A DNA stretch of 64,000 nt from a virus. Its lineage: Duplodnaviria > Caudoviricetes. The notes under the pieces were generated by a model. The model was not told where the DNA came from. It did no database searches and saw only the letters and a list, made by a program, of their open reading frames with translations. The stretch lies in the IMG/VR virus record IMGVR_UViG_3300030330_005435, positions 1-64,000 of that record; one strand, written 5' to 3'. Every line of letters starts with the position of its first letter. The first letter of the stretch is position 1. Below, piece after piece: positions 1 through 64,000 of this stretch. Both the position numbers and the translations under genes were made by a program.

Positions 1-60
1 GCCCTCTGCCAACACGTTCTCTCGAACATACTTAAACCAATTGTCGGTATAAATTTCCAT
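1..60 (-). CDS. 5' end of a gene running off the window edge (MEIYTDNWFKYVRENVLAEG...), probable virion/head-associated protein
   Basis: ATG at 58-60, GAGG Shine-Dalgarno upstream, CTATTTA motif at 82-88; N-terminus resembles that of the 63383-63961 protein. Confidence 0.55.
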   Translation of the reverse strand, partial: MEIYTDNWFKYVRENVLAEG

Positions 61-100
61 TAATTTACCTCTTTAACACAATAAATAGTCATCTTTATAA

Positions 101-856
101 CTAACCGCTGGCAAAAAGGTCAGTCTTGAGAAGTGCGGCAGTATCTTGCCAACAATCAACCTCAATCGCTTCGCCGTTAGGGTGTTTACGCAGAGCCTCT
201 GCTAATGCATAATCATTACCAGGAAAAGGAATACGATCCCCAACAAACACTATACGATGATCTTTAAGCTTATCTTCAAAGTGTTTTATAACCTGCGACT
301 TGTCGTTGCCTTTGTTGAATATGTCAATACTGACTGCGCCACCAATTACAAAGTCAAGTTTGGAATATTTACTGGACAATTTTTTTACGATTTGCTCTCT
401 TTCTTTATGTTGCTTGTCGTAGGCTGCATATTCTTTTCTCTGCTCGGGTGTCGCGTCCAAGCCAACAATAGAAAAGTTTACCATGCCTGTCCGTTCTTCG
501 TAGTGTCTGCCGACGTTTGTGTGATAATTGGAACTCATAACACACCTCTCTAATTCGCTGAAGAATAACTTTGGCTTGGCTACGGTAAATTTGTTTTTAT
601 ATTGTAGTGCCCACGAACTGTAGCCGTCAATGTCTTTTATCTTTTTGTAGTGTGCGTTGCCCATGCAACTAAATACACCTTTTGTTTGCTCAATGATTTT
701 GCGAGTAAGCTGATCGATAAGGCGAGGGAACGAGCCGCCAGAAACTATATAGACCTCTTTGTCTTTCTGCCAGTTGTAAAAAGTTTTGGCAAACCCTTGA
801 TCAATCTTGCTTTTTGCGGGCGTTAGAGTACCATCTACATCGAATATATATATCAT
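101..856 (-). CDS. HAD-IIB family phosphomannomutase (eukaryotic PMM-like)
   Basis: FDVDGTLTP nucleophile motif, VSGGS, ERTGMVNFSIVG, GGAVSIDIF, FVGDR..PGND; start reassigned to MIYIFD (ATGA overlap with upstream stop). Confidence 0.85.
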   Translation of the reverse strand: MIYIFDVDGTLTPAKSKIDQGFAKTFYNWQKDKEVYIVSGGSFPRLIDQLTRKIIEQTKGVFSCMGNAHYKKIKDIDGYSSWALQYKNKFTVAKPKLFFSELERCVMSSNYHTNVGRHYEERTGMVNFSIVGLDATPEQRKEYAAYDKQHKEREQIVKKLSSKYSKLDFVIGGAVSIDIFNKGNDKSQVIKHFEDKLKDHRIVFVGDRIPFPGNDYALAEALRKHPNGEAIEVDCWQDTAALLKTDLFASG

Positions 857-1203
857 CTCCAAAACAGTTGTACCCCTACGATCATAAACGAAAGCGCAAC
901 ACAAATCATTGTCTTGGTGGTGAACATACTCTCATGTAAAAAATACCATGTTAGTAATGGAAAAGTGAAATATGACATGCTGAATATCAGAAATCTAGGG
1001 CCCCATACTTCGCCCCATTCTTCATAACAAAGTTTGATACCGTACCAAAAGCATATGCCTGTTGGCACCGAAAACAAAACTGCCGCCATCAACGGTTTAT
1101 CTTTCCACCAATCCCACACAAATTGTGAGTTTAATTGAAACCAGCCAAGTGTTTGCCCAAGCGCGAATAAAAGGCACGCGAATATAATATTAAAAGTTGG
1201 CAA
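853..1203 (-). CDS. Small 4-TM membrane protein, SMR/DMT (EamA half)-like
   Basis: Four hydrophobic segments; C-terminal WYFLHE.MFTTKTMICVALS resembles the DMT 'FFGE.LT' signature; TTG start. Confidence 0.55.
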   Translation of the reverse strand: MPTFNIIFACLLFALGQTLGWFQLNSQFVWDWWKDKPLMAAVLFSVPTGICFWYGIKLCYEEWGEVWGPRFLIFSMSYFTFPLLTWYFLHESMFTTKTMICVALSFMIVGVQLFWR

Positions 1204-1948
1204 TTAAAATTTCCTTTGCATCTTGCTCGTTTGTGACGTTACCGTGCTGATTTATAAAATACATTTTATCACAAATTTTAGAGTAATTGTTGATAACGTG
1301 TGGTGCATTTTTGTATATTATTGCTGTATTTTTGTCTGTGTTTTTAAAATAATCGAGCAGTTCTGCGTGGTTTAGTTGTGTTTCTTCGAGGCCATAACTT
1401 TTTCCCTCTTCAAATAAATTTAATGAATATTTGCCGGCATTAATAATCTGGTAATCTCCCCGAGACATTGCGAGAGAGTCGATAATGTTTCCACCATCAA
1501 ATATTAAAAAAAAGTTTTCTGGCTTTCTAAATGTTTTTAAAACTGCTAAATCGGATTTATTAAGTTCGCTGGATTCCATGGAGCCGAATGATACTGCACC
1601 ATCCGATGAGCATTTATTCAAAAAGTAAAACAACGCTGAACGTATATATTGGTCTTTATACTTGGCAAAATTTTCCTGCAAAAAGGGGAATTCTTTTTCG
1701 TCAAATTTAAAAAATTCAGTGCTGACAATTTCATAAATTTTGTCTGGGTTTTCCAATAGGCACATCCAAAACTCATAAATTACATATTGTGTCGTATGGG
1801 CACATACAAACCTATTATATTTGGACAACATCATTTCAAGTTGGCCACTGAAAAACATATAGCTGTCAATTACAGACCCTTCGGGTATTATTTTCAAGAT
1901 CTGCGCTAAGGTGCTTGTTTCATGTATTTTATTCTTTAGCAATATCAT
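1190..1948 (-). CDS. Degenerate D12-class (Dam-like) DNA adenine methyltransferase fold, probably inactive
   Basis: ALFYFLNKCSSDG resembles Dam 'FxYLNRxxFNG'; the DPPY position reads NAGKY; start uncertain (1948 or 1972). Confidence 0.5.
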   Translation of the reverse strand: MILLKNKIHETSTLAQILKIIPEGSVIDSYMFFSGQLEMMLSKYNRFVCAHTTQYVIYEFWMCLLENPDKIYEIVSTEFFKFDEKEFPFLQENFAKYKDQYIRSALFYFLNKCSSDGAVSFGSMESSELNKSDLAVLKTFRKPENFFLIFDGGNIIDSLAMSRGDYQIINAGKYSLNLFEEGKSYGLEETQLNHAELLDYFKNTDKNTAIIYKNAPHVINNYSKICDKMYFINQHGNVTNEQDAKEILIANF

Positions 1949-2345
1949 TATGAGCGCTATTTTGTTGTTCAAACACTTCTTTGAAATTGTTGATGTGTTT
2001 TTCTAATTGATCAATATCAACTTCGCCTGGTTCATAAAGTGACGCGGTTGGAACATCATGCATCTGCTGTTGTGACTGCTCATCAATACCTGATTTGTGT
2101 GCAACGTAACCTTTTATGATATTTTGTATGTCCTGCAGCGCATAGTCAATATTCATAAGCGCAAGGCGTGCTTTTTCTACACACTCCATATTGTCCATTG
2201 TCAGTATATTTTCTGCTTCAGCTAATTCAGATAAGATACATGTGGACAGCTTTGATTGATCATGCGCTTTTTTAACTAACCTTAATGTTTCGTTTGGTAG
2301 TTCGTCTATGTCGACTGTATATTGTAAGTTTACTCTTTGTCCCAT
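1929..2345 (-). CDS. Hypothetical coiled-coil protein
   Basis: 138-aa ORF with GAGG RBS, in operon. Confidence 0.7.
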   Translation of the reverse strand: MGQRVNLQYTVDIDELPNETLRLVKKAHDQSKLSTCILSELAEAENILTMDNMECVEKARLALMNIDYALQDIQNIIKGYVAHKSGIDEQSQQQMHDVPTASLYEPGEVDIDQLEKHINNFKEVFEQQNSAHNDIAKE

Positions 2346-2346
2346 G

Positions 2347-2640
2347 TTAACCTCTTAAAAGTTGCTTATTTGTGTTTAGTGAGCGCTCAACGATATCAGG
2401 TGCACCAACAACAATTATTTCAGTACCTGTATGACCGCGATTAATTGTTAATTTTGTAAACCTATGATTTGTGTTCAGACCTTCCGTGAGCGGTATGCTT
2501 TCATTAATCTCTTGTAGTCTTGCATCTTCGCGAATCATCACGACATGTTCAGGATTTATAAAAACTTCTCTCAAAGTATAGTCATTTTGTTTTGTTGTGA
2601 GCGCGTTATTTCTGCACACTTCTGTTAGTCTTACTAACAT
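2347..2640 (-). CDS. Hypothetical protein, weak FlbD/SwrD-like pattern
   Basis: GGAGG RBS before MLVRLTE; 'VFINPEHVVMIRE...TKLTI...IIVVG..DIV' pattern. Confidence 0.45.
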   Translation of the reverse strand: MLVRLTEVCRNNALTTKQNDYTLREVFINPEHVVMIREDARLQEINESIPLTEGLNTNHRFTKLTINRGHTGTEIIVVGAPDIVERSLNTNKQLLRG

Positions 2641-2855
2641 GTTTCCTCCATTGGGTAAATGCATTTTAAAGAAACAGATTTTTCTTGGCCGTTTGTAAAA
2701 ATTCTACACGTGTTAAATGCGTCCATCTTAAGAAAAACACCAGTTATAGGCTTTTGCGTCTTATAATATTTTACGCCCGTTGTTCCTTCTTCAAAGTCCC
2801 ACAGATCCACATCTTGTGGTATATATATTAGATCGCCCGCTCTTATAGTAGTCAT
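2634..2855 (-). CDS. Small hypothetical protein (possible SH3/KOW-like barrel)
   Basis: 73-aa ORF directly after groEL; IRAGDLIYI start motif. Confidence 0.55.
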   Translation of the reverse strand: MTTIRAGDLIYIPQDVDLWDFEEGTTGVKYYKTQKPITGVFLKMDAFNTCRIFTNGQEKSVSLKCIYPMEETC

Positions 2856-2857
2856 AA

Positions 2858-4438
2858 TTAATCCGTCTGTATAATACCGTAATTAGTAGTAATTAGGGTA
2901 CCGGCACAACTGGCGGCGTTTTGTAGAGCGGTTCTGGTTACCTTTACAGGGTCAACAATGCCCGCGTCAAACAACTCAGACAGTTCGTGGCGCTTAAAAT
3001 CCCAACCATAATCTGTGTCGTGTCCTTTTTCAAGAATTTTAGAAATGATTATATCCGCTGATGAATGTCCTGAATTGACAGCCATTTGTCTAAGCGGCTC
3101 GCGGCACGCGACCTGTATAACCGATGCACCCAGTGCCTGATCAGCACTATCGGCTGTTATAACTAATGAACTACTGGCGCGCAAAAGCGAGGCGCCACCC
3201 CCAGGCAAAATGCCTTCATCAAGTGCCGATTTTACAGCCTCAAGCGCATCTTCAATACGATGCTTTCTTTCTGTCATCTCTACCTCTGTAGAGCCACCAA
3301 CGCGTATTACTGCTACGCCTGAAGATAATCTCACAACACGGCCTTGAATTCTTTCGCACTCGTCAATAGACTCTGTTTCTTCTATTTGTGTTTTAAGGCT
3401 TTCAATTTTTGTTTCAACCGTTTCAAAGTCACATTCACCTCCAACAATGGTGGTGAAATACTTGCTACATTCAATAGATTTTGCACTTCCGAGATCCGCC
3501 AAAGTCACCTCATTTAATTTTGTACCACTTTCGCGTGTAATAAAGTTAGCCCCTGTGGAAAGTGCTAGATCTTCTAATAAATCTCTGCGTTCTTCTCCGT
3601 AATGCGGAGCCTTGATTGCTGCGATCTTGAGTGTGCCTCGCATGGCGTTCATAATCATAGCCGCCAGTGCTTGGCCTTCAATTTCTTCTGCAACAAATAT
3701 TAACGGCCTACCTTCTCTCGCGGCCATTTCAAGCACGGGCATGATAGGTTCGACAGCAGAAACCTTATAGTCAGTAACTAAAATAAGTGGGTCTTCGTGC
3801 GACATGGCGGCGCGGCGCTCATCTGTCACGAAAGCTGCCGCGGCGTATCCTGACTGAAAGCGAAAACCTTCTGTAATGTCAATCGAAGTTTCAAGCGAGC
3901 GAGATTCTTCAATTGTGATCGAGCCGTCTTGTCCTACTTTATCGACTGCCATGGCGATGAGCTTGCCGATAGTGGGATCATTGTTGGCCGATATGGTCGC
4001 AATGTGCTCGATATCGTCGATACTACGAATAGGGTGTGCTAAATCTTTTAAATTATTAACAACTTCATCAACAGCCAATAAAATACCACGCTGTAGTTCG
4101 GTGGGAGATACACCAGAAGCAATAAATCTCTGTGATTCTCTCAAGATTGCTCTCGCTAGCACTGTTGCTGTGGTCGTACCATCGCCAGCATCAGCATTTG
4201 TTTGAACCGCTGCTTGTTTGATAACCTGAACCGCTGCATTCTCGATGGGATCTTCTAAGGCCACAAAATGTGCCACTGTTACCCCATCTTTTGTAACAAA
4301 CGGTGTTTTACCTTTTTCTTGTAGCAGAACATTGCGACCTCTCGGGCCAAGTGTTGAGGCTACATTGTCTGCTAAAATGTTTGCCCCTCTCATAATCTTT
4401 TGTTGTAATGTTTGATTGTCGTCGTATTCTCGACTCAT
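2858..4438 (-). CDS. groL: Chaperonin GroEL (Cpn60)
   Basis: TLGPRGRNV, TKDGVTVA, AGDGTTTAT, GGVAVIRVGG, GIVDPVKVTR; no GGM tail. Confidence 0.98.
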   Translation of the reverse strand: MSREYDDNQTLQQKIMRGANILADNVASTLGPRGRNVLLQEKGKTPFVTKDGVTVAHFVALEDPIENAAVQVIKQAAVQTNADAGDGTTTATVLARAILRESQRFIASGVSPTELQRGILLAVDEVVNNLKDLAHPIRSIDDIEHIATISANNDPTIGKLIAMAVDKVGQDGSITIEESRSLETSIDITEGFRFQSGYAAAAFVTDERRAAMSHEDPLILVTDYKVSAVEPIMPVLEMAAREGRPLIFVAEEIEGQALAAMIMNAMRGTLKIAAIKAPHYGEERRDLLEDLALSTGANFITRESGTKLNEVTLADLGSAKSIECSKYFTTIVGGECDFETVETKIESLKTQIEETESIDECERIQGRVVRLSSGVAVIRVGGSTEVEMTERKHRIEDALEAVKSALDEGILPGGGASLLRASSSLVITADSADQALGASVIQVACREPLRQMAVNSGHSSADIIISKILEKGHDTDYGWDFKRHELSELFDAGIVDPVKVTRTALQNAASCAGTLITTNYGIIQTD

Positions 4439-4460
4439 TAGTACCTCGAAGTTATATTAT

Positions 4461-4489
4461 ATTATAATCTCTTTTGATAATTATGTCAA
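4461..4489 (-). promoter_or_regulatory. Consensus sigma70 promoter for groEL operon
   Basis: TTGACA-17 nt-TATAAT. Confidence 0.9.
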
Positions 4490-5772: not shown

Positions 5773-5782
5773 CTATAAAACC

Positions 5783-6794: not shown

Positions 6795-6803
6795 AGCTTC
6801 ACC

Positions 6804-6840
6804 AAAAAAATAACCACCAGTAACTAGTACAGGTGGTTAT
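6804..6840 (-). terminator. Intrinsic terminator after acidic protein gene
   Basis: ATAACCACC / GGTGGTTAT 9-bp stem followed by a T run on the minus strand. Confidence 0.75.
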
Positions 6841-6869
6841 ATTATAATTACTCTTTTTAACTTTGTCAA
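6841..6869 (-). promoter_or_regulatory. Consensus sigma70 promoter
   Basis: TTGACA-17 nt-TATAAT. Confidence 0.9.
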
Positions 6870-6870
6870 G

Positions 6871-7617: not shown

Positions 7618-7680
7618 TATAAAATCTCCTTGTTTATTCAAATAAACTCAAAATAAATAGTCTTAATGTGCTATAAACAC

Positions 7681-9946: not shown

Positions 9947-10307
9947 CTTCAGTATTTTTCCTCAACAATTTAGCATTCCGTGTAGACTTGCGATAGGACG
10001 GCGAAATTTCTTCAAGCTGTTCTTCGTTGATAGTAGTTTCATTTTCCTGCTCAACCAAGACTTCAGTTACCTCTTCGGGCATATTTGATTTTTCTTCGTT
10101 TTCAGTTTGGCGCGCTAGTAAATCACCATATTGCGCCAATGTCAAAGCGGCGCCTTCATACTGGACCAGATTCAAAGCATGATTAGCAATCCTGTCAACT
10201 GTCCCAGGCTCTGATGGCCTGTGATAGATATCTTTAATGATTGCCAACTCTTCAGTGGCTTTTGATTTAAGTCTCTGTATTGCTGCTTGTAAAATTTCTT
10301 CTGTCAT
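9936..10307 (-). CDS. Hypothetical protein
   Basis: 123-aa ORF in operon with overlapping start/stop. Confidence 0.65.
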   Translation of the reverse strand: MTEEILQAAIQRLKSKATEELAIIKDIYHRPSEPGTVDRIANHALNLVQYEGAALTLAQYGDLLARQTENEEKSNMPEEVTEVLVEQENETTINEEQLEEISPSYRKSTRNAKLLRKNTEDES

Positions 10308-10777
10308 TTGTTAATTCCTTCTACTCTCCAAAGTTCTCCGCCTCCATCAAACACAACTACAGCGGAGGGAAACGGCGCGGAGTTACTACTGTCTCCAAAT
10401 TTAAGGCGACCCTTGACAAAGTGAATTTCGGATGCCTTCATAACATAGTTGTGCCAATATTTTGTATCTGTTCTCGCTGGGATGAGCATGACAACCTTTG
10501 TGTCAGATTTCTTAGCTTCATTATAAGCTTTCTCGATCCATTTGTCAATACCTCTTCCATACGGAGGATTGACAAAACATGTAAATCCCTCCCAATCTTT
10601 TTCTAAACCATTTTCTGCCTTTGTAAAAAAGTTGGCGCACTTCGTATTGTGTGGACTGGCGCACGGATCTAAGTCAAACGGCCCAAAGCGCCAATCAAGC
10701 TTATTGAAAAAATCTTGAGGGGTAGCCCAATTACCAGACTTCGAGCTGAACATTGTTCTTTGCGTTTCTTTATTCAT
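10304..10777 (-). CDS. Phage N6-adenine DNA methyltransferase (phage Dam family)
   Basis: WATPQ, FDLDPCA, FVNPPYG, LIPARTDTKYWH, GRLKF. Confidence 0.92.
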   Translation of the reverse strand: MNKETQRTMFSSKSGNWATPQDFFNKLDWRFGPFDLDPCASPHNTKCANFFTKAENGLEKDWEGFTCFVNPPYGRGIDKWIEKAYNEAKKSDTKVVMLIPARTDTKYWHNYVMKASEIHFVKGRLKFGDSSNSAPFPSAVVVFDGGGELWRVEGINK

Positions 10778-11931
10778 TGCTTTTCCTTAACCTCTACAAA
10801 TTCTTCTGAGTCTTCTTCCCACTGAAAGGCTCGATAGTCTCCTTGGTGCATTTGTTTTACAAACAAAATTTTAGTAATGATTGGATAACCTCCAAACTTG
10901 TAGACTTCATGCTTGTTAATTGCAGCAATCTTTGCAACAACCTTTGGGATCTCTTTTGAAATTGTTTCAGAAGAAGTAATTGAAGCAGTTAGATTGTCTC
11001 CAACACGCAACGTTGCATAGCACGGCACACGTACTGAAGATGCTGGTAAGTCGTTCTTCCAACAGTTCGTTAGCGTTTCTAAGATGCGATAGATTCGTGT
11101 TGGGCACTCAAACTTAAACACATTGCCAGTGTCGGTTGTCCAATCAACATTGGGAAAAAACCTTCTAGCATTTAAATCAATCTCTTCTTGCAATGGGAAC
11201 GAAAGTGATTGACCCCTATGTGATGCGAATGCTTTGTTGACGATTTCTCCCAAGAAGCGCTTCTTGGACGAGTGAGCAAAATCTGAACTAATGTTGTCGA
11301 TGGCCCACTGTTTTCCCCATTCAATCTGTTGTTCTTCATCCCACTGTCTTACGCTCTCAACAAACTTAGCCATTGTGTTGTACTCTGATTGAATTTGGTG
11401 TACCCAATCTTTGCTCGAATCTTCTCTTACAGAGTCGAGTCTTTTATTGCTTAGTCTTGCTAGTGAACTGCAAAACTTTAAAATTTCGTAAATCTCTGCA
11501 TCTTCATCAAAAATGACTTCTAGAAAATTAAACTTACTTTCTGCACCTTTGCTGATTGCTTTAAGATGGCCCTTGGCGCGCTTCCATCCAAATATCATAA
11601 ACAATTCGTCGTTTATGCGGGTTGCAATGGGAATTTGCGTTTGTGGTTTTTCTAAAACGTAAAATTCATCATAATAATTGACATCGCCTGCTAGAGTCGA
11701 GTTTGCTCTTGGTTGAAATGTCGGGTAGTATTCGTGGCTTTCAGAAACTAAATCGCTTAAATCGTGCTTTGTGCGTACACGAAAGTCTCTAACTAATTCA
11801 CTGCTGGTTAAAGCTGCCCATGCATCACGGATACGCGGATCAGTATTTCCTGGCAAGTCGTCATAACCGAGATCCCTTACCTTATTCTCAATTGTTGTTG
11901 TATTAATGTCTATGACATTTGATGCCTTCAT
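10774..11931 (-). CDS. Hypothetical 385-aa protein with ParB/Srx-like N-terminal motifs
   Basis: FQPR...IPI...MIFGWKR resembles the ParB-N 'QPR...PI...I.GxxR' box. Confidence 0.45.
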   Translation of the reverse strand: MKASNVIDINTTTIENKVRDLGYDDLPGNTDPRIRDAWAALTSSELVRDFRVRTKHDLSDLVSESHEYYPTFQPRANSTLAGDVNYYDEFYVLEKPQTQIPIATRINDELFMIFGWKRAKGHLKAISKGAESKFNFLEVIFDEDAEIYEILKFCSSLARLSNKRLDSVREDSSKDWVHQIQSEYNTMAKFVESVRQWDEEQQIEWGKQWAIDNISSDFAHSSKKRFLGEIVNKAFASHRGQSLSFPLQEEIDLNARRFFPNVDWTTDTGNVFKFECPTRIYRILETLTNCWKNDLPASSVRVPCYATLRVGDNLTASITSSETISKEIPKVVAKIAAINKHEVYKFGGYPIITKILFVKQMHQGDYRAFQWEEDSEEFVEVKEKQ

Positions 11932-12630
11932 TTATTCTCCTAAAATGTTTTGTTGTTTAATTCTTCTTTGTTCAAACCTTTCATCGGTTTTTTTATTAAT
12001 TTCTAATATTGTATCAATATTGTATGGTACATTGCAAGCTTTTTTTTCAAAAACCCAAAAATATGAGTGATATTTTCTTGCATGGCTTTGATTATTTTTA
12101 TGGTTGTGGCCAATGATGCGATTTTTAGCCAGCAAGACAAACATGTCTCTTGGGTAAAATCCATGAACAAGTGCGCGCTCCATGATATAACAATGAGAAA
12201 ACCAATTTTTACCAGACGAAACAGTATCCTGGCACTTAAATGCTAAGACACCTTTGTTTTTGAGAATCCTGCTAAATTCTGCTAAGCACTGGTCATACCA
12301 CCCCCACAAATCGGTTACATACCTAAATCCATGGAATCTTTTACCCATAATGCCGGTAGGTACAGCTTTGGTGTGACCCGCAACAAACGGAGGGTCAAAC
12401 ATAATGCTGGAAATACTGCTGTCATCAAACGGTAAATCATCAGCAGACGCCTTTTGTACCTCATCGTTCTTGGGAAACAAATCGTATTTATATCGAGGCT
12501 CAATAATCTCGGGAGATTTGTAAAAATTACCTTTGCTGTATGTTGGGTCTAGTTCAAACCCGTCAGGTGCGAACATCGTTTGTATGTTCTTAATGATTTC
12601 GTTTTGATCTTCTGATGTGCTCTTTATCAT
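11932..12630 (-). CDS. Amino-DNA methyltransferase (m4C or m6A)
   Basis: ELDPTYSKGNF SAM-binding motif followed by MFDPPF catalytic motif, EFSRILKNKGVLAFKCQD; start reassigned to MIKSTS. Confidence 0.85.
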   Translation of the reverse strand: MIKSTSEDQNEIIKNIQTMFAPDGFELDPTYSKGNFYKSPEIIEPRYKYDLFPKNDEVQKASADDLPFDDSSISSIMFDPPFVAGHTKAVPTGIMGKRFHGFRYVTDLWGWYDQCLAEFSRILKNKGVLAFKCQDTVSSGKNWFSHCYIMERALVHGFYPRDMFVLLAKNRIIGHNHKNNQSHARKYHSYFWVFEKKACNVPYNIDTILEINKKTDERFEQRRIKQQNILGE

Positions 12631-12635
12631 AATTA

Positions 12636-13388
12636 TCACATTACAGGGCATTTGAATTGAATCTTTTTGCCCTTGGTCCCAGTTGCATATGTCCAAGAGA
12701 GGCCAGTGCCGTATCCGCTCGCTCTACTAGTAATAGTATCAACTTGTTGTTCAATTGTGTAGGTAGAAAAAGAACTAGCATATCTTGTGTTATAATCAAC
12801 TTTAAACATAATTGTGTGATTTGCAATTCTTAAATCTTCTTCATGCTTATTGGGGCTTCCAGTTAGCGTCCAACGCACAAATTCTTTTTTTATAGGTGCA
12901 ATTTTGCTTTTTAAAATTTCACGCTCTTCAACGTTGAAGTTTTTACCAGATGCATCAGTTTGAAACTTATTCATTAACTGCAGCAATGTGGCGTCTGTTA
13001 TACCTACTTCTTCTTTGATGGTGCTAACATCAAATTCAGCCACCGCTATGTTCGCAGATGAGGATTGCTTCACAGATATTTTGATAAAAAGCCCATTAAT
13101 CGCCACACAAACATCAGTCTTTGCGGGTCCACCACTATCTCTTTTAGGTACTTCAATAATTTTAATTGTATCGACATGATCAATATTGTACACAGCGCAA
13201 GTTTGATAAAATATCTGCTCAGCCATATTGTCAGGTTGTCTATTGCAATTAAATTTGTTAGCAATGTCAGAATCGGAAAAAATCAATTCGATAAATTCTT
13301 CGTAAGCCAAGCCAGCAAGTGCTGTTTTACTGCCAACACTCCTGTCTGGATCACTGACACCGTGTTTGCCAAATAGGTTTCGCAACAT
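12636..13388 (-). CDS. MspI-family type II restriction endonuclease
   Basis: GLAYEEFI, GGPAKTD, ISVKQSS..IAVAEFDV..I...VGITD, FVRW, GYGTGLSWTYATGTKGKKIQFK align collinearly with MspI as recalled (GKLYEKYI, GGSPKTD, LNIKHSS..VSIAEYDV, GFGTGLNWTYASGSKAKKMQFK); AGGAG RBS. Confidence 0.85.
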   Translation of the reverse strand: MLRNLFGKHGVSDPDRSVGSKTALAGLAYEEFIELIFSDSDIANKFNCNRQPDNMAEQIFYQTCAVYNIDHVDTIKIIEVPKRDSGGPAKTDVCVAINGLFIKISVKQSSSANIAVAEFDVSTIKEEVGITDATLLQLMNKFQTDASGKNFNVEEREILKSKIAPIKKEFVRWTLTGSPNKHEEDLRIANHTIMFKVDYNTRYASSFSTYTIEQQVDTITSRASGYGTGLSWTYATGTKGKKIQFKCPVM

Positions 13389-13390
13389 TG

Positions 13391-13651
13391 TTATACTCCT
13401 GTGTTATTCTCGTTATTGCTAAACATCTCAAAGTTTTCTACAACCTCATCAATGTTAACATTGTCTTTGAATAGACGATATGCTTTCACAGCTGCCCTAA
13501 GTTCGTCGGTATTGAGCCATCCGTTTTCGCGATATTCAGTACGCAAGTCACGTTTTTGTTCTTTAAAAGGCTCCATTGCCTCTTCAATTGCCACCAAAGA
13601 ACGGATGTATTCTTTTACGTAGCGTTTTCTCTCTTCGTTTGTTGTAGCCAT
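13391..13651 (-). CDS. Small dsDNA-binding protein, T4 DsbA / GapR-like
   Basis: Helical pattern 'YIRSLVAIEE.MEPFKEQKRDL..EY..NG...ELRAAVK.YR'; AGGAGG RBS. Confidence 0.6.
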   Translation of the reverse strand: MATTNEERKRYVKEYIRSLVAIEEAMEPFKEQKRDLRTEYRENGWLNTDELRAAVKAYRLFKDNVNIDEVVENFEMFSNNENNTGV

Positions 13652-13674
13652 TGGGCCCTCCTGATTGTTTATAT

Positions 13675-13703
13675 AATATAACACACATATGTTCAGCAGT
13701 CAA
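13675..13703 (-). promoter_or_regulatory. Sigma70 promoter driving dsDNA-binding protein / REase / MTase operon
   Basis: TTGACT-17 nt-TATATT. Confidence 0.75.
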
Positions 13704-27017: not shown

Positions 27018-28166
27018 TTATTCTTTTACGGGTACAGTGAGATCATCGGGATCTTCGTAATAATTACTAGCATCACCTTCACGTTTATCAAATTTTTGAA
27101 CAATTTCTTCATCCATAATTTGTACAACGTGCGATCTGAATTCTTCATCACTAGTAACTAACTCAGTCCACTTGGAGGGTTGGAACTTTTTCGTGTATCC
27201 ATCTGGCGTAGAGAGTGTGTACCACGCTCCAGCCGATGTTAACGAATCGGAACCTTTAATGGCATCAAACCAGCTTTCTTCATCGCGAATGCCGATCTCA
27301 TCTGTTCCCCACAAGATACGAAAAGCACAGGAGCGACCTTGCGTACCAAATCTTGACTTTTCAAGCTTCACTTTAACTTCAGAGCCAATGCGAAAGCCTT
27401 TTTCATCTTCGATAAACGAAGATTTTGCTTTGCGACCAGTAAGCCAAACACGTAACGAATATGCATAATGCATGGCTTTCCCACCCGGTGTAATGTATGG
27501 CGTTGTCATTGCCACAATACGTGCCGTTGGTCCTTGTGGGATATTTGTCTTCAATTGATTAAGAACAATAAACGTAGCTTGCTTATCTGCTAGTGGAATA
27601 GTCAACTTAGACATTCCTTTAGCCAAAATACGTGCTTTAACAGCCATAGAAGACTGAGGGTTAAAATCGCCCTCTACATCAGAAACTGAAGGTGTGAAAG
27701 CCAACGAGTCCCATATAAAAACAATCTGTTCGTCTGTTGCTCCAAGCAGTTCTTCAATTGTCTCAAGAACAAACTCCACAGACGATGCCTGAACATACAT
27801 TAAGCGTTCTAAATCACAGCCTGAGCGCTCCAAAAAAGTTGGGTCGATTGCTGATTCAGAATCAAAATATACGATAAGCTTGCCCATTTTCTGTGCGTTT
27901 GCTGCGATTTGCGCAGCCATATAGGATTTACCTGTAGATTCAAGTCCTGCTATCTCGGTAACTTTACCTACTGGGATTCCAGCAACTCGGCCTTTGCATA
28001 TAATAGAATCAAGCCACCTAGAGCCTGTTGGGATCCATTCTTTAACAGAAGTGGGATTGTCGCCAGTTAGATCGTGTGCTACGTTTCTACCTGCCTTCTT
28101 ATTTACTAATTTCATCAGATCTTGCATATCTACACGACCTGCTTTTGGTTTTGCTTTCCTGGCCAT
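27018..28166 (-). CDS. recA: RecA/UvsX recombinase
   Basis: IPTGS..LD, EIAGLESTGKS, YFDSE, WDSLA, FIVLNQ, PGGKA. Confidence 0.95.
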   Translation of the reverse strand: MARKAKPKAGRVDMQDLMKLVNKKAGRNVAHDLTGDNPTSVKEWIPTGSRWLDSIICKGRVAGIPVGKVTEIAGLESTGKSYMAAQIAANAQKMGKLIVYFDSESAIDPTFLERSGCDLERLMYVQASSVEFVLETIEELLGATDEQIVFIWDSLAFTPSVSDVEGDFNPQSSMAVKARILAKGMSKLTIPLADKQATFIVLNQLKTNIPQGPTARIVAMTTPYITPGGKAMHYAYSLRVWLTGRKAKSSFIEDEKGFRIGSEVKVKLEKSRFGTQGRSCAFRILWGTDEIGIRDEESWFDAIKGSDSLTSAGAWYTLSTPDGYTKKFQPSKWTELVTSDEEFRSHVVQIMDEEIVQKFDKREGDASNYYEDPDDLTVPVKE

Positions 28167-37304: not shown

Positions 37305-38504
37305 TTAATCAATGAACTCACTCAAAAAAGACCCATAGGCTGCTTCTTCAGATTTAGTAGCTTCATCAGGATACGGTCTTGCATTAAATGGTTTCTTGTC
37401 TTTTACGGCGGCGCTGCGCTCAGAGATCTTGTTTTTTCTTCTTTCGCCTTTTGCTGTTAGTTCGTATTCTATTTTGCCATCTACAACTCCGCCTGCAATT
37501 AGATAGCCAGCAGCTATGGCGTTTTTAATCATTTGTTCTTTCTTTTCTCGCTCTTCATCAGCCAAAAGTTTGTCAATTTGTTTTTGAACCGCGGCTTGGG
37601 CTGCAAGTGCTTGGTTTAGATCCAATTGGGCTTGGGAGCCAGCTGCGTTAGAATCATTTACGTTTATTCCATAAGGAAACAATCTATCGTTGAAGGCGTT
37701 TTTTTCCCATCCAAGTGTATTTTCGTGTATAACATCAAAATCAAGTGTTACTTCAATTGCTTTTGGAATTATAACACCATCTGCTAAAATAAAAGAGCCC
37801 ATTTCTAAGTTGTCTATGTTATGATTAACACTCACATTTCTAATAGCCCCTAGCAAACCTTGGCTAGCAGCGCCATGCGACAAAGTTTTTTGAGCTTGTT
37901 TGTGGTGTTTAAGATTGCCTACTGCGGGCGGTTCCGGAAGGCCCGAGAACGCATTTACCACTGGAACTTGTGATTGGCGAATCATATTCATTATTCTCAT
38001 CCTAATTAACGGAGACTGCGATACAGTTAAAGCGTTATCGACGTCTTCATATGTCGGATACAAAAAGGATAAAAGTTCTTGTACTTTACCTAAATTTTCA
38101 AATGCTTCGCCTTCAGAAGAAGCTGGTATGATTAATGACAAAGTTATGCTTCTTGTTGTTTGTTTAAACATTCTAATTGGATCAGTTCGTCCATAAACGG
38201 ATTCAGAATTCCAATCGCTACTAAAGGTTTCATTAAAAGCATTTATAAATGATTTAAAGTGCACATAGTTGCTTGTCGGAACATGAAAAAATGATACAGC
38301 AAACCCCCTGTTTGCAAATGCATCCGATCCATCACTATAGTAAACTTTAGTCGCGTTAATAGCGTTACCCTTCGCATCGATGCCGCTTTTTAATTCATCA
38401 AGAGTATATTCTGCCAAGTGTCCAACTTGGCCCGTTTCAGGATCACCATTTTCTTTTACTAAGCTTGCAAATTTGTTAGTGCTGTAATAATCTTTTATGC
38501 CCAT
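37305..38504 (-). CDS. Baseplate tube initiator (CIS tube / gp48-gp54-like)
   Basis: FSSDWN.ESVYGRTDPI..F..T.R.ITLS; PLIRMRI; PKAIEVTLDF; directly after tape measure. Confidence 0.7.
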   Translation of the reverse strand: MGIKDYYSTNKFASLVKENGDPETGQVGHLAEYTLDELKSGIDAKGNAINATKVYYSDGSDAFANRGFAVSFFHVPTSNYVHFKSFINAFNETFSSDWNSESVYGRTDPIRMFKQTTRSITLSLIIPASSEGEAFENLGKVQELLSFLYPTYEDVDNALTVSQSPLIRMRIMNMIRQSQVPVVNAFSGLPEPPAVGNLKHHKQAQKTLSHGAASQGLLGAIRNVSVNHNIDNLEMGSFILADGVIIPKAIEVTLDFDVIHENTLGWEKNAFNDRLFPYGINVNDSNAAGSQAQLDLNQALAAQAAVQKQIDKLLADEEREKKEQMIKNAIAAGYLIAGGVVDGKIEYELTAKGERRKNKISERSAAVKDKKPFNARPYPDEATKSEEAAYGSFLSEFID

Positions 38505-54971: not shown

Positions 54972-55042
54972 TAATAGGGCTCCTAAAGTGGGAAATGTTC
55001 AAAATAAATAGTGCCAAGACTCACAAAAGGCCATTTTTGATA

Positions 55043-56551: not shown

Positions 56552-56582
56552 TAAGTGGTTTCTCCTGTACTACTAAGTAGAC

Positions 56583-57710: not shown

Positions 57711-57773
57711 ATTAATTCTCCAACACTATAAATAGGCCATTAATTTCATTTATTCGACACATTGTATAACTAT

Positions 57774-57807
57774 AAAAAAAAGATGCCCCCTCATAAGAGG
57801 GAGCACC
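57774..57807 (-). terminator. Intrinsic terminator
   Basis: GGTGCTCCCTC-TTAT-GAGGGGGCATC + T8. Confidence 0.8.
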
Positions 57808-57843
57808 AAAGTTATTACAACTAAAGCTGTAAAGGGATAATGA

Positions 57844-59211: not shown

Positions 59212-59321
59212 ATTTAAAACCCTCCATATTATAGTTTTTATTATGGTAAGCAGCTTAATGCTTAACATGTAAGCAGATAAGCGTGCTTGCTTTTAATTAG
59301 TACTGTGCGGTGGCAAAAAAT

Positions 59322-60077
59322 TTAGAATATATAAAATCTATCTATTCCGTTTGAATAAACTTGAATAGATGCATAAGGTGACTCCAAAATTACTTGATTT
59401 TCGCCGTCGATTGTTTGGGAGCCAGAGCCAGAAATTGTTATATTATTTGTGTTCGCTGCGCCGCCTTCATCTTTAAATATCCATGTTTGTCCGTCAGAAG
59501 TAGCTGCAGCATCGGGCAAAGTAAACTTGATTATATTACTTGTTGAGTTAGCCCCGATGAAGTAGTCCGAAACAGTAACTGTATAATTTGCTGTTTTGAG
59601 AACTCTTTTGTAAATAAGACCACCACTTAACTCTGATGTCCCTTTTACATTTAATGTTTGTGTTGGTGTTGCATTAGAGCCAATGTTAATGCTACTGGTA
59701 GTGAATGCTTGGTTGGCACTTGCTTGTGTAAAAATACCCCCACCAGATCCGCCGCCTGCTGAGATTCCTGTTAAACGACTACCATCCCCCATAAAAAATG
59801 AAGCTGACACGCCTGTGCTGGCTGTAATTTCTCCTGTAACATTGAGGGTATCACCGTCGAATGTCAGTGCAGTATCGCATCTTAATGTGTTTGGATCCCC
59901 ATCAGTGTTAATGACTAAACTATTGGCGTTAGCTAATGATACACGCGGCACATTAATAACATCAGCACCATCGGACGTACTAAGATTACCAGACACAATA
60001 GAGCCACTAGCCAGTGTAAGCCTTGTGGTCAGTCTGTCTGGTAAAAATACGGTACCAGATAAGTTATTATATGCCAT
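59322..60077 (-). CDS. Fibre/decoration-like virion protein (paralogue family)
   Basis: MAYN start; C-domain DYFIGAN....FTLPDA...GQTWIFKDEGG...TIDG...YSNG. Confidence 0.6.
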   Translation of the reverse strand: MAYNNLSGTVFLPDRLTTRLTLASGSIVSGNLSTSDGADVINVPRVSLANANSLVINTDGDPNTLRCDTALTFDGDTLNVTGEITASTGVSASFFMGDGSRLTGISAGGGSGGGIFTQASANQAFTTSSINIGSNATPTQTLNVKGTSELSGGLIYKRVLKTANYTVTVSDYFIGANSTSNIIKFTLPDAAATSDGQTWIFKDEGGAANTNNITISGSGSQTIDGENQVILESPYASIQVYSNGIDRFYIF

Positions 60078-60100
60078 TTAATGGTGCCTCCCTTAATTAA

Positions 60101-60781
60101 TTAGAAGACAAACCAATTGGCTCCATTAGAATATAGACTAATAGCTGGATTAGAGCCAGTTAAGCTATAGGTTAGGGAACCATCAATAGCATATCCAGTG
60201 GCTGCATTTATTGTAATATTGGTGCCATCGACATGGCCGACTTCGTCTTTAATAAGTAATATGGAGCCTGAGCCATATATTGATGCGCTTGGTATGAGAA
60301 TTTCAACTTGACCAGTTTGCTGAACGCCCAGAATATAACCTGGGGCGCTAGCCGTATAGCTGCCAATTGAGCATGTTTGATACATAACATTAAGGCCGCG
60401 AATATGTATGGCTTCGGTTGCTGTGCTTGCGCTTAAAATGTTAACAGGTGAGGCGCCCGCAGTTTTAACAACAAGGCTACCAACTCTTGTGTGAGTGTCA
60501 TCATTTGAATTACCGAAGTTTGTCGAACCTGTGGCATCTATTATTGAAATATCGCGATATTGAAATACGCTGGCACTGACCGTTCCAGTAACAATTAAAT
60601 TACCAGACAATACTAATGAATTCTGAGGATTACCGGCAACTGATCCAGTATAAAATATAAAATGTGACGAACCACTTGTCGTATTGTGCGCAGTCAAAAA
60701 TTGTACTGAACCAGTTGGTCCAGCCGCCTGACCTCCACCGCCTGAAGCATCACAATCTACATAAGCCCATCCAAACGACAT
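60101..60781 (-). CDS. Fibre/decoration-like virion protein (paralogue family)
   Basis: C-domain YILGV...ILIPSA...GSILLIKDEVG...AIDG...YSNGANW. Confidence 0.6.
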   Translation of the reverse strand: MSFGWAYVDCDASGGGGQAAGPTGSVQFLTAHNTTSGSSHFIFYTGSVAGNPQNSLVLSGNLIVTGTVSASVFQYRDISIIDATGSTNFGNSNDDTHTRVGSLVVKTAGASPVNILSASTATEAIHIRGLNVMYQTCSIGSYTASAPGYILGVQQTGQVEILIPSASIYGSGSILLIKDEVGHVDGTNITINAATGYAIDGSLTYSLTGSNPAISLYSNGANWFVF

Positions 60782-60783
60782 GT

Positions 60784-61221
60784 TTAACCAACTCCCACAG
60801 AACCGCTCCAGGACGGACCAGCGCTACCTGACGTCCTTTCGGGTCGAATAGTTGTGAGACCTGCAACAATATCAACATTTGTTGAACCTGAAATCCAAAT
60901 CTGTGAAACTTTTAACTCAAGTGCGGCGGAGTGTCCTAATTGACCTGGAGAGCCCGCATGCTTTGGTATACTAAAATAATTAGTTCCGTCAACACCTGCC
61001 TTAGAAAAACCAACCTTGAGAGTTTCGTGTATATCTTTGTTGACAATGGTAATCCAACGCGTAACAAACGGGAATTCCACAACTTGTGCAGGCCGATTTA
61101 CGCTGCCAGTACTGCAATTTATGCCGCCAGATGCGAATGGGCGCCCTCCAACTTGATACGCAGGGACGTTGTTTAAACCAACTTCCATTTGCCATGATTT
61201 TGTAAAATTCTTGTTACCCAC
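60784..61221 (-). CDS. Small virion protein, tandem duplicate copy B (GTG start)
   Basis: Highly similar over its full length to the 61284-61712 protein. Confidence 0.75.
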   Translation of the reverse strand: MGNKNFTKSWQMEVGLNNVPAYQVGGRPFASGGINCSTGSVNRPAQVVEFPFVTRWITIVNKDIHETLKVGFSKAGVDGTNYFSIPKHAGSPGQLGHSAALELKVSQIWISGSTNVDIVAGLTTIRPERTSGSAGPSWSGSVGVG

Positions 61222-61243
61222 TTAAAACTCCGAAATTTAAATA
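61178..61243. repeat. 66-bp direct repeat, copy 1 (5' end and RBS of duplicated gene)
   Basis: 63/66 identical to 61669-61734 by manual comparison. Confidence 0.85.
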
Positions 61244-61283
61244 TTATAAATATAAATAGTTGCCTGTGATATATCGCACAAGT

Positions 61284-61712
61284 CTATCCAACTCCCGCAG
61301 ATCCGCTCCATGAAGGACCATCAGAAGTGGTAGTTCTTTCTGGGCGGATACTTGTAAGACCTGCAACAACGTCGACATTTGTTGAGCCTGAAATCCAAAT
61401 TTGTGAAATTTTTAGCTCCATTGGGCTACTGGTAGCCAGTAGTCCTGGTGCACCACCAAGTTCGGGAACTGTAAAGTAATTATCTCCATCAACCCCAGCT
61501 TGAGAAAATCCAACCCTAACTTCGCGTGCGGAATCGTTATTTACAATTGATACCCAGCGGGCCACAAACGGAAACTCTACAACTTTAGCGCCCTGAGTTG
61601 GGCTGCAGTTAATGCCGCCTGTAGCAAACGGTCTTCCACTAACTTGATACGAAGCAACATTATTAAGGCCAACTTCCATTTGCCACGATTTTGTAAAATT
61701 CTTGTTACCCAT
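61284..61712 (-). CDS. Small virion protein, tandem duplicate copy A
   Basis: MGNKNFTKSWQMEVGLNNV..YQV.GRPFA; late motif at 61744. Confidence 0.75.
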   Translation of the reverse strand: MGNKNFTKSWQMEVGLNNVASYQVSGRPFATGGINCSPTQGAKVVEFPFVARWVSIVNNDSAREVRVGFSQAGVDGDNYFTVPELGGAPGLLATSSPMELKISQIWISGSTNVDVVAGLTSIRPERTTTSDGPSWSGSAGVG

Positions 61713-61734
61713 TTAAAACTCCAAAATTTAAATA
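61669..61734. repeat. 66-bp direct repeat, copy 2
   Basis: Matches 61178-61243. Confidence 0.85.
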
Positions 61735-61750
61735 CATTCAATATAAATAG

Positions 61751-61996
61751 TCACTTATTTCTTCTATTACGTCTTTCTTTTGCCCGCTTTCTTTTTAACT
61801 CTTGTCGGATCCGTGCACGCTCGGCTTTGATTCGTTTTTCTTTTTTAGCAACAGATGGTTTTTTATAGCGGCGACGATCACGAACCTGTTCAACAATTCG
61901 TTCTTTCTTGCACTTTTTAATAAATCTTCTTATCATTCTTTCAGAGTTGCCGCGGCATTCTTTAGATGAAACTGATACGTTACATTGTTTTTTCAT
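61751..61996 (-). CDS. rpsU: Phage-encoded ribosomal protein bS21
   Basis: VSV....GNSERMIRRFIKK..K..I....R.RRRYKKPS..KKEK matches the bS21 pattern. Confidence 0.85.
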   Translation of the reverse strand: MKKQCNVSVSSKECRGNSERMIRRFIKKCKKERIVEQVRDRRRYKKPSVAKKEKRIKAERARIRQELKRKRAKERRNRRNK

Positions 61997-61999
61997 AAT

Positions 62000-62410
62000 T
62001 CACTTCATTGCATTCCATATTTGAGATGCGCCGCCAACCAAAGATGAGATATCGACTCCAGAATCATTAGGGGCCCCCAGGTCAACAGTGCCGGCTGCTT
62101 GACTATGTTCAGCAGGTGCGGGTGTTGTACCTTCAAATAAATCAACGCCATTATAAGCATCTTTCCCAATAGCATCTAACATGCGTCTTTTCTGTTGTTT
62201 TAATTTTTGGACGTTGTTCGTTTGTCGATTTTCATTTTTTGTTGTTTGTGGGGCTGTAGATTGTTGTTGTGCTTCAACAAGCACTTTACCTTGCATGCCG
62301 ACTGCAACTTCTGAAACAATATTTGACAGCAAGCCTTCTTCCAACAATACTTCATGTATGCACTCTTTTACTAATGGCTTAATTACTTTTTTAAGATCAG
62401 CCTTTTTCAT
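62000..62410 (-). CDS. Hypothetical head-associated protein
   Basis: MKKADLKKVIKPLVKECI.EVLLEE amphipathic N-terminus; follows the prohead protease. Confidence 0.6.
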   Translation of the reverse strand: MKKADLKKVIKPLVKECIHEVLLEEGLLSNIVSEVAVGMQGKVLVEAQQQSTAPQTTKNENRQTNNVQKLKQQKRRMLDAIGKDAYNGVDLFEGTTPAPAEHSQAAGTVDLGAPNDSGVDISSLVGGASQIWNAMK

Positions 62411-63005
62411 TTAAAACCTCATTTAATAGACGATTAATTCTATCTGCTTTTGTAAATACTTTGTTTTGAAACTCTTTAGCTTCTTTCATCATGAACGCGC
62501 CTGGTGTGGATGGTTCAGAAACAAAGTCAAAACAAATAAGTTGAAAATCGTCTTCAACAACAGTGTTTCCTTGGGACTCTGATACCGATCCCATTCCCCG
62601 AGATGATATACCAATACTAACTCCAGCGCTTACCAAAGACTGTAAAACTTGTCCAGAAGGTGTGTCCAGAACTTTGGCTTTGCCCATAACATTTTTACCA
62701 TCCCACCAAACATCAGTCATCATATGAGATGCGTTTCTTAAATTAATTACTGAATCATCTGGGTGGTCTAATTCACCTAATGCTCGGCGCTCTTTTACAA
62801 GCTTTGAATAGTTCACCATTTCTCTTTTTAGTACATGTTCTGGGTAAACTCTTCCATTTCCATTAACAGTATCTGCTTTTTGAATGATGCCAGTTAGCAT
62901 CATTCCCCCATTAGATACAAAGCGCTTCTCTTCTTCTGTTAATAAATCCTGGCAAACACCACCTTCGCAGAGTTCATAGTACTCTCTAAGTAACTTCTGA
63001 CCCAT
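62397..63005 (-). CDS. Prohead core protease (gp21-like)
   Basis: GIIQKADTVNGNGRVYP, ALGELDHP, ASH, GISSRGMGS, FDFVSEPSTPGA. Confidence 0.95.
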   Translation of the reverse strand: MGQKLLREYYELCEGGVCQDLLTEEEKRFVSNGGMMLTGIIQKADTVNGNGRVYPEHVLKREMVNYSKLVKERRALGELDHPDDSVINLRNASHMMTDVWWDGKNVMGKAKVLDTPSGQVLQSLVSAGVSIGISSRGMGSVSESQGNTVVEDDFQLICFDFVSEPSTPGAFMMKEAKEFQNKVFTKADRINRLLNEVLNEKG

Positions 63006-63007
63006 AG

Positions 63008-63097
63008 CTAAGATCCTTTGCAGCAGCGTCTAACTGGTTGAAGCATCCACTTGTTTGTCCATGTGGCAGGACTGTTCATTTGCGTGTTTGTGTTCAT
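63008..63097 (-). CDS. 29-aa peptide MNTNTQMNSPATWTNKWMLQPVRRCCKGS (not in ORF track)
   Basis: Manual translation; GGAG RBS 6 nt upstream; stop 2 nt before the protease start. Confidence 0.45.
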   Translation of the reverse strand: MNTNTQMNSPATWTNKWMLQPVRRCCKGS

Positions 63098-63380
63098 GTT
63101 TTACTCCGTTATCTCCGAATATCATATTCAGTATGTAAGATGTTCCTGATGAAAGCCAACCTAAAATAAAATAGTTTGTTACAGAAACTTCAAAACTAAA
63201 TAGTTCCGTGAACGGAGAAAGTAGCATTAAAAACCAACCAACATGAAATCCCATGCACATAGGACATTTAAACAACTGTCCCAATCTTCCCTCTGTCGGT
63301 CTTAAGCCGTCAAATATTTTACCGTATACAAGTATTTGTGTCAGCCCGTAGGCACATAGTATGAATGTTAATAGTTCCAA
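63030..63380 (-). CDS. Membrane protein, DUF1360-like
   Basis: Hydrophobic helices, LFKCPMCMGFHVG CxxC motif. Confidence 0.6.
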   Translation of the reverse strand: MELLTFILCAYGLTQILVYGKIFDGLRPTEGRLGQLFKCPMCMGFHVGWFLMLLSPFTELFSFEVSVTNYFILGWLSSGTSYILNMIFGDNGVKHEHKHANEQSCHMDKQVDASTS

Positions 63381-63382
63381 TT

Positions 63383-63961
63383 TTACTCCATTGGTTTTGA
63401 TTGTAATTTGAAATCGGTGGCTAAGTATTTTTGCATAGTATCAGTTCCCCAGTTTTTTGGTATAGGTTGATCATCGCCCAATGACTGTAATTGCTCCATA
63501 GCAAAAGACACAAAGGGGCCGTTCAATAATGGGTTGATTGAGCCTTCATATGCATCGTGAACGTTCAACAAATTTAAAATTGGATTTTTGCTGGCTGCAA
63601 CATCATCTACCAACATTAAACTTGCTATGACTTGCGCGTCGTCTTTAAGATTTAATTTTGCCCTTTTGCTTACATTGGAAACTAATTTAGCACCAGAGCG
63701 TACTAAACCAAATCCAATCGCGCCCGTTGCAAAAGATGCTATATCAACACCAGCATCGATGGCTGCTGTTTCCAATTGTTTTCCAAGTTTACCACCCGAG
63801 GCTATATCTTTAGCAATAAATCTTACGAGGAATTTTAATTGGCCAGCGTTGATACTATCACCTTGAATGCTTTTAAATTTGCTTAAAATGTCAGCAAACT
63901 TATCGGTTTCTGTTTCTTGTTCGTTGACAAACTTGTTCCAATTTTCAATTAAAGTTTTCAT
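63383..63961 (-). CDS. Hypothetical virion/head protein
   Basis: MKTLIENWNKFVNE N-terminus; lies within the head module. Confidence 0.6.
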   Translation of the reverse strand: MKTLIENWNKFVNEQETETDKFADILSKFKSIQGDSINAGQLKFLVRFIAKDIASGGKLGKQLETAAIDAGVDIASFATGAIGFGLVRSGAKLVSNVSKRAKLNLKDDAQVIASLMLVDDVAASKNPILNLLNVHDAYEGSINPLLNGPFVSFAMEQLQSLGDDQPIPKNWGTDTMQKYLATDFKLQSKPME

Positions 63962-64000
63962 TTTAAATTGTATACAAGTAGCTCAACGAATATGGATCTC
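63958..64000 (-). CDS. 3' end of gene entering from beyond the window (...RDPYSLSYLYTI)
   Basis: Open frame ending in TAA overlapping the next ATG; frame not independently confirmed. Confidence 0.35.
   Translation of the reverse strand, partial: RSIFVELLVYNLK

Follow-up and report, generated by a model that had tools for sequence, protein, structure and literature searches.

The stretch of DNA analyzed here (64,000 nucleotides, referred to as the window) corresponds to positions 1 to 64,000 of a viral contig of 74,052 bp from IMG/VR (IMGVR_UViG_3300030330_005435), and it carries the gene of a type II restriction endonuclease (REase) of the MspI family in DNA that is strongly depleted of the tetranucleotide CCGG. 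CheckV estimates the completeness of the contig at 39% and complete relatives have genomes of 187–203 kb, the contig being part of an uncultured myovirus with a genome of ~190 kb. All genes of the contig lie on the same strand and include those of a DnaE-type polymerase, GroEL, ribonucleotide reductase, a tail sheath protein and a major head protein. The phage is apparently a large-genome phage of marine origin, and ocean (Tara) metagenome assemblies are the source of its closest relatives. A search among cultured phages for near-identical DNA found none, and the nearest of them (phages of Microcystis and Flavobacterium) have major capsid proteins only 39–48% identical to that of the contig.

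The REase was identified by its matches to the Pfam family PF09208 (81.4 bits with a cut-off of 25.6, covering profile positions 14–258 of 259), to MspI itself in the PDB (1sa3, E = 8e-29, residues 5–246 aligned on 9–261) and to the PADLOC model REase_II (99 bits). The catalytic residues Asp99 and Lys119 of MspI are represented by D92 and K107, both of which are invariant in 30 family members, and a C-terminal segment (GTGLSWTYATG..KKIQFK) is nearly invariant across the family. The position of MspI Asn117 is occupied by S105. This substitution was considered as the mark of a dead enzyme but is probably not one, Ser being the family norm: Ser or Thr is usual at this position, including in bacterial members that are paired with C5 cytosine methyltransferases (MTases), and Asn occurs in 2 of 37 members. 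From the conserved C-terminal segment and the loss of CCGG in the genomes that carry the gene, we infer that the enzyme would cleave CCGG.

The REase is followed on the same strand by a small amino-MTase gene, whose ATG lies 5 nt past the REase stop codon (Table 1). The product matches phrog_24333 with 196 bits and Pfam PF01555 with 27.2 bits, barely over the cut-off of 26.7, and a PDB sequence search with it gave no informative match. Searches of the 74-kb contig for a C5 MTase (PF00145), for an HpaII-family REase and for further N6_N4 or D12 MTases found none besides this gene. Throughout the clade of phages to which the contig belongs the position of the REase is constant, in a slot between a small open reading frame (ORF)/dUTPase and a Dam-family MTase. 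The REase–MTase order is the same in seven other lineages (L099, L183, L187, L212, L081, L186, and L214), and within the clade the MTase is found only beside the REase, in 8 of 9 carriers and 0 of 80 non-carriers. Decay of the MTase in lineages purged of CCGG was not seen, the copies being intact with conserved motifs in all lineages examined.

Table 1. Features of the window, of related loci and of the other REase carriers. Positions refer to the window unless a locus is named; CCGG counts are given as observed / expected.
Feature	Position	Strand	Evidence or content
CCGG-depleted phage DNA	1..64000	.	Markov observed/expected ratio, codon shuffle, KS (Kolmogorov–Smirnov) test
MspI-family type II REase, 250 aa, intact	12636..13388	-	Pfam, PDB, PADLOC
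Small amino-MTase, 232 aa from ATG at 12630, DPPF motif	11932..12630	-	Pfam, PHROG
ORF385, 385 aa, unannotated, between MTase and Dam (cluster c26)	10774..11931	-	
Dam-family N6-adenine MTase, downstream edge of variable slot	10304..10777	-	Pfam PF05869, 118.5 bits
Small conserved ORF, upstream edge of slot (cluster c3)	13391..13684	-	
Remaining CCGG site outside RCCGGY, first of two	27485..27488	.	ACCGGG on coding strand
Remaining CCGG site outside RCCGGY, second of two	37934..37937	.	TCCGGA
Carrier L096			REase alone, c19-type and C5 MTases absent from locus; CCGG 0 / 17.4
Carrier L099			REase + MTase; CCGG 0 / 17.1
Carrier L212			REase + MTase; CCGG 5 / 23.3
Carrier L187 (= L213)			REase + MTase; CCGG 13 / 32.5
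Carrier L183			REase + MTase; CCGG 4 / 9.1
Carrier L081			REase + MTase + ORF385-like gene; CCGG 11 / 10.7, undepleted
Carrier L186			REase + MTase + ORF385-like gene; CCGG 27 / 23.5, undepleted
Carrier L214			Divergent REase + MTase; CCGG 9 / 6.9, undepleted
PurA/PurZ-like gene	L099:4627-5592, L187:7464-8450, L136:6070-7053		PF00709
Solitary slot MTase of GTAC-poor phages	L105:11917-12891; also in L106, L107, and genome G006		

The shortage of CCGG was first noticed in a reading of the sequence without database searches. This sequence-only reading had put the number of sites in the window at about 21, which is the exact count, with all 15 of the positions it listed among them. Its G+C content of ~38% and the naive expectation of ~80 sites derived with it were both too low, the computed values being 40.1% and 102. 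Against the Markov expectation, N(CCG)xN(CGG)/N(CG), which it had proposed as a check, the 21 sites compare with 78.9 expected (observed/expected ratio (O/E) 0.27, z = -8.0), far under every other 4-bp palindrome; the next lowest is CTAG at 0.75, and GCGC and CGCG, which had been thought frequent, are without depletion at 1.05 and 1.00. In the entire contig there are 25 sites where ~87 are expected, and the O/E of 0.29 is at the bottom of the 136 strand-merged 4-mers. The sites are spread uniformly along the contig (KS p = 0.88).

When synonymous codons were shuffled within each of 81 genes (300 shuffles), the coding DNA was found to hold 23 CCGG where the shuffled sequences held 90.2 ± 7.5 (z = -9.0, shuffle minimum 71), so that neither the encoded proteins nor their codon usage can account for the shortage; an artefact of codon or amino-acid composition was ruled out in this way. 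Deamination of 5-methylcytosine depletes methylated sites in some genomes, but here its products are at expectation (CTGG/CCAG 1.04, TCGG/CCGA 1.01), and where relatives have CCGG this phage has T, A or G alike. These normal product levels and mixed replacement bases rule out methyl-cytosine decay and argue for selection. The loss of CCGG, which has removed around three quarters of the sites, is thus the result of selection acting at silent codon positions.

The relatives of the phage were then compared with and without the REase. For 80 relatives retrieved via the major capsid protein the pooled CCGG O/E is 1.11, and the only depleted one among them is a single locus (L063, record G001). A further 80 closer relatives were retrieved via the neighboring DnaE gene (79–95% identical), of which 61 span the slot; no REase, small MTase or ORF385 was found in these 80, and their CCGG O/E lies between 0.72 and 1.50 (median 1.16), none being depleted. 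Among them is L103, whose DnaE is 95% identical to that of this phage. Three complete relative genomes that gave no match to PF09208 have O/E values of 1.37 (G002), 1.00 (G006), and 1.19 (G007). By contrast, an O/E below 0.5 is found in six of the nine carrier lineages (0–0.44; this phage 0.29) vs. 0 of the 80 non-carriers (Fisher p = 1.4e-7), and REase subclade A has five members, every one of them depleted, with a pooled 34 sites vs. 153.5 expected. The comparison between relatives with and without the enzyme that the sequence-only reading had called for thus comes out in its favor, and its suggestion that the shortage is in keeping with a CCGG-cutting enzyme, resident or of the host, is supported by the O/E of 0.27, by the full-length REase and by this contrast between the relatives. 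The association among carriers favors the resident enzyme, but record G001, discussed below, is depleted although the available part (39%) of its genome showed no REase.

Most backbone proteins of L096 are 80–96% identical to those of this phage, and no CCGG occurs in the 20.7 kb of L096 examined, where neither a cytosine nor a c19-type MTase gene was found within 10 kb of the REase. The REases of the two phages are only 52% identical despite the ~90% identity of their backbones. In L183 the opposite is seen, with a REase 91% identical to that of this phage but a DnaE of 65% and an IMPDH of 56% identity. These discordant identities indicate that the REase cassette is mobile. In one further relative (protein P0015, ENA ERZ25072384) an MspI-like gene in the same slot is broken into two ORFs (140 and 112 aa), presumably a decayed and dead copy. 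Carriers with zero GGCC were also observed (L212, IMGVR_UViG_3300030333_007226, and L214/L215), and the zero GGCC of L212 shows that two palindromes can be purged from one genome.

Homologs of the REase are rare: a large protein collection contained 37, the nearest of which were all assembled from environmental metagenomes, most of them Tara ocean ones. None of the cellular homologs in 185,579 species genomes exceeds 42% identity to the phage REase, and the nearest belong mainly to Bacillota from the guts of animals, alongside a few from Melainabacteria and Treponema; no sign of a recent capture from a marine host was seen among them. Of the 23 cellular REase loci, 21 have a conserved C5 MTase at a distance of up to 4 kb, and none has the phage-type MTase. 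From these comparisons, the phage REases are a lineage of their own in which the methylase has been replaced or is missing.

On balance, we consider the phage's own mobile MspI-type nuclease to be the probable agent of the CCGG loss, by way of self-avoidance. The nuclease would cut unmethylated CCGG in the DNA of the host or of rival phages, and the setting of the cassette, which is surrounded by nucleotide-metabolism genes, would fit a role in nucleotide salvage or competitor exclusion. If the nuclease cuts CCGG, then the phage's own sites are a liability, and so they would be lost by synonymous changes, with NCC-GGN to NCT/NCA/NCG-GGN as the main route. The adjoining methylase may give partial or initial cover, and it would become dispensable after the sites are lost, as may have happened in L096 with its nuclease alone. 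The proposed order is one in which the cassette with its MTase arrives, the sites are purged next, and the MTase can finally be dispensed with. The undepleted carriers always hold the MTase too, the cassette of L183, apparently a recent transfer, sits in an only mildly depleted genome, and the MTase has been lost in the fully purged L096. The undepleted carriers with their MTase, the mild depletion of L183 and the lack of any purged close relative without the REase fit, in what is a small sample, an order in which the cassette came first and the purge after.

There are a number of observations that weigh against an agent within the phage. Three REase-positive lineages (L081, L186, and L214) are without depletion. 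The MTase family is highly conserved and very large, with ~2,000 homologs at roughly ≥60% identity, mostly stand-alone in other large phages, and its DPPF motif is more typical of adenine than of N4-cytosine MTases. The more distant relative G001 (= L082–L085, IMGVR_UViG_3300013111_000230; DnaE 63% identical) has five CCGG vs. 74 expected (0.07), with all flank contexts affected, yet its syntenic slot is empty and no nuclease or MTase was seen in the available 70.7 kb (39% of the genome); nothing recognizable as either was found among its ten largest non-structural unique ORFs. Other palindromes have also been lost in the clade, almost completely, and in some cases without a slot nuclease. GGCC is avoided in many members, many of the GGCC-free ones having no extra gene in the slot, and in the GTAC-poor phages the slot holds only a solitary type II MTase (PADLOC, 152 bits) and no nuclease, with a genome-wide count in G006 of 59 GTAC vs. 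350 expected (O/E 0.17). Such losses indicate that host-imposed avoidance is common in the clade. As a separate observation, G001 is also low in CGCG (0.56) and GGCC (0.64).

The main alternative is that restriction–modification (R-M) systems of some family, carried by the hosts of this phage and of the other depleted lineages and recognizing CCGG, drove the loss, and that the MspI-like gene is a passenger tolerated only by CCGG-poor genomes, its acquisition having been permitted by the depletion. In addition to the depletion of G001, this is favored by the avoidance of GGCC, GTAC, ACGT and AGCT, and throughout the clade of CTCGAG and GAGCTC, for none of which a resident nuclease is recognizable, and host R-M systems are a widespread driver of site avoidance among the viruses of prokaryotes (Rusinov et al., 2018, PMC6286503). 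However, if depletion merely permitted acquisition, purged genomes without the gene would be predicted, and none of the 80 close REase-less relatives is depleted, while the undepleted L081, L186, and L214 carry the cassette, so that a prior purge was not required. A phage nuclease for CCGG would also be unable to cut the DNA of a host that methylates CCGG, and would be of little use there, and no close homolog of the REase was found in marine bacteria among the species genomes searched. Taking these points together, we regard host-imposed loss as rather unlikely, and self-avoidance remains the reading that we prefer.

The CCGG sites that remain in the contig are not a random sample of flank contexts. 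With the REase-negative relatives as baseline, the context RCCGGY accounts for 23 of the 25 sites (13 GCCGGC, six ACCGGC/GCCGGT and four ACCGGT) and is down ~2-fold from 50 expected, whereas all other contexts together are down ~27-fold, with 2 sites vs. 55 expected (contrast p = 3.9e-6). At the codon level, NCC is found before GGR in 0 of 118 cases and before GGY in 15 of 312. This sparing of RCCGGY is not seen in the other carriers L187, L212, and L183, which makes the pattern specific to this phage. As a trait of the REase subclade it is unsupported, because other contexts are retained both in L183, despite its 91% identical REase, and in L212; in the contig of L183 there are three sites outside RCCGGY vs. 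6.7 expected. It was also observed that GCCGGC is ~3-fold over-represented in the REase-negative relatives L103–L182 (826 vs. 278 by a second-order Markov model), probably because the codon pair GCC-GGC (Ala-Gly) is preferred.

The grading by flanks suggests that the nuclease may cut RCCGGY poorly or that the methylase may protect it well. Its possible causes are flank-dependent kinetics of the nuclease/methylase pair or an extra methylase for RCCGGY or GCCGGC encoded in the unseen 61% of the genome. According to the latter, a second MTase (of Cfr10I/NgoMIV type), located in the missing part or in the host, would shield these sites while CCGG in any other context would have to be purged, which would modify either of the two explanations above and compete with neither. 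The predominance of RCCGGY among the remaining sites and its absence as a pattern from the other carriers speak in favor of such an enzyme, but C5, D12 or further N6_N4 MTases were not found in the 74 kb available, and a context that is itself ~2-fold down is a better fit to graded kinetics than to full protection; we consider a second MTase distinctly unlikely. Finally, a neutral or mutational origin, by methyl-cytosine deamination at CCGG or by codon, amino-acid or dinucleotide bias, can be given almost no credence, as nothing was found in its favor, the depletion survives both the Markov and the codon-shuffle nulls, the deamination products and replacement codons are as described above, close relatives sharing the codon usage are undepleted and the contig has no C5 MTase.

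The slot in which the REase lies (10777–13391, with the same slot in L103–L182) is a hyper-variable site that holds swappable R-M cassettes. At its upstream edge the small conserved ORF is kept in 61 of the 66 loci with a readable slot, and also in G001 and G002. The Dam gene at its downstream edge was considered as a partner of the REase and rejected, being a core gene of the clade that is present in 64 of the 80 REase-negative relatives, where most loci lacking it stop short of the slot. ORF385, lying between the MTase and Dam, gave no match to Pfam, PHROG, NCBIfam or PADLOC and has a weak ParB/Srx (sulfiredoxin)-like lead (ESM Atlas score 0.90); similar genes are found in L081 and L186, both of them undepleted REase carriers. 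In other relatives the slot contains N6_N4 MTases of cluster c8 that have unannotated partners upstream, and these partners co-occur with low TCGA (cluster c12), TGCA (c39) or GGCC (c27). Elsewhere it is occupied by a D12 MTase, by an HNH protein or by a GHKL-ATPase protein, or it is empty. The notion that every slot cassette is a nuclease was rejected, the GTAC-free phages holding an MTase and many GGCC-free phages nothing extra. A PurA/PurZ-like adenylosuccinate synthetase (PF00709, ~328 aa) is encoded just upstream of the slot in some relatives, though not in this phage, and might hint at a 2-aminoadenine (Z-base) pathway.

The hexamers CTCGAG (XhoI) and GAGCTC (SacI) are missing, or almost missing, from all clade genomes examined. 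Their respective counts are 0 and 0 in the window (naive expectation ~10 each), 0 and 3 in G002, and 0 and 0 in both G006 and G007, with naive expectations of 26–31 in these three genomes (loci L086–L095 and L189–L208). This looks like a clade-wide avoidance of the two 6-mers, regardless of the cassette in the slot.

If self-avoidance is indeed the cause of the CCGG loss, a broader picture may be put forward, which we hold only tentatively and with less than even confidence. A clade of large, apparently marine myoviruses would swap restriction cassettes at a recombination hot-spot, and each phage that acquires an MspI-type cassette would purge the target word from its genome, ending in methylase-less carriers whose immunity to their own weapon lies in the absence of sites. 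The flank-graded purge of this phage, with CCGGR lost and RCCGGY retained, would then have been caught mid-process, as a readout of the in vivo flank preferences of its enzyme pair.

Site avoidance is usually read as a footprint of host defense. Here, with 80 negative controls and nine carriers from a single clade, the data indicate that the agent can be a nuclease of the phage itself, and that the methylase is unneeded after the sites have been lost. Should this be true, the palindrome vocabularies of phage metagenomes would partly report the weaponry of the phages and not their host range, which matters for host prediction. Such genomes would also serve as in vivo specificity readouts for uncharacterized nucleases, the prediction in the present case being a preference for CCGGR over RCCGGY, and they would be a source of methylase-independent type II enzymes together with a defined cassette hot-spot in abundant ocean phages.

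The nearest characterized enzyme is R.MspI of Moraxella sp., a type IIP enzyme cutting C^CGG (PF09208; PDB 1sa3/1yfi) whose partner is the C5 methylase M.MspI. The phage REase resembles it in its full-length homology, its catalytic Asp and Lys and its C-terminal segment, and the word depleted from the genome is the MspI site. Unlike R.MspI it is phage-borne, is ~30–35% identical (a rough estimate from the alignment) and has Ser in place of Asn117, and where R.MspI has a C5 MTase it is accompanied by a small DPPF amino-MTase or by no MTase.

Loss of GATC in Staphylococcus phage K is a classic example of site avoidance. The present case is similar to the avoidance described for prokaryotic viruses, in that one 4-bp palindrome is depleted synonymously and differs between related phages (Rusinov et al., 2018). 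It differs from the known cases, in which the agent is a host R-M system, in that the loss tracks a nuclease carried by the phage and depends on flanks. A search of the literature turned up no publication that connects a REase carried by a phage with the loss of its own site. In 831 phages, 12 solitary REases and nine R-M systems were reported by Oliveira et al. (2014, PMC4176335), who noted the possible lethality of a solitary REase in the presence of its sites and made no link to site loss. The similarity to the present case is that phages do carry, at low frequency, REase genes that lack a cognate MTase.

R-M systems are also encoded by chloroviruses and Marseilleviridae, for which an attack on the DNA of the host or of co-infecting competitors has been proposed as the role (PMC7253447; PMC7019647). 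As in the present clade, these are lytic viruses with a type II REase and an adjoining MTase of prokaryotic type that are present in only some members. In melbournevirus, methylated GATC sites are retained that would yield 387 fragments (PMC7253447; PMC7019647). Chloroviruses and Marseilleviridae thus keep their sites and methylate them, whereas in the phages described here the sites have been removed, with 25 remaining vs. 87 expected in this phage and 0 vs. 17 in L096 and L099.

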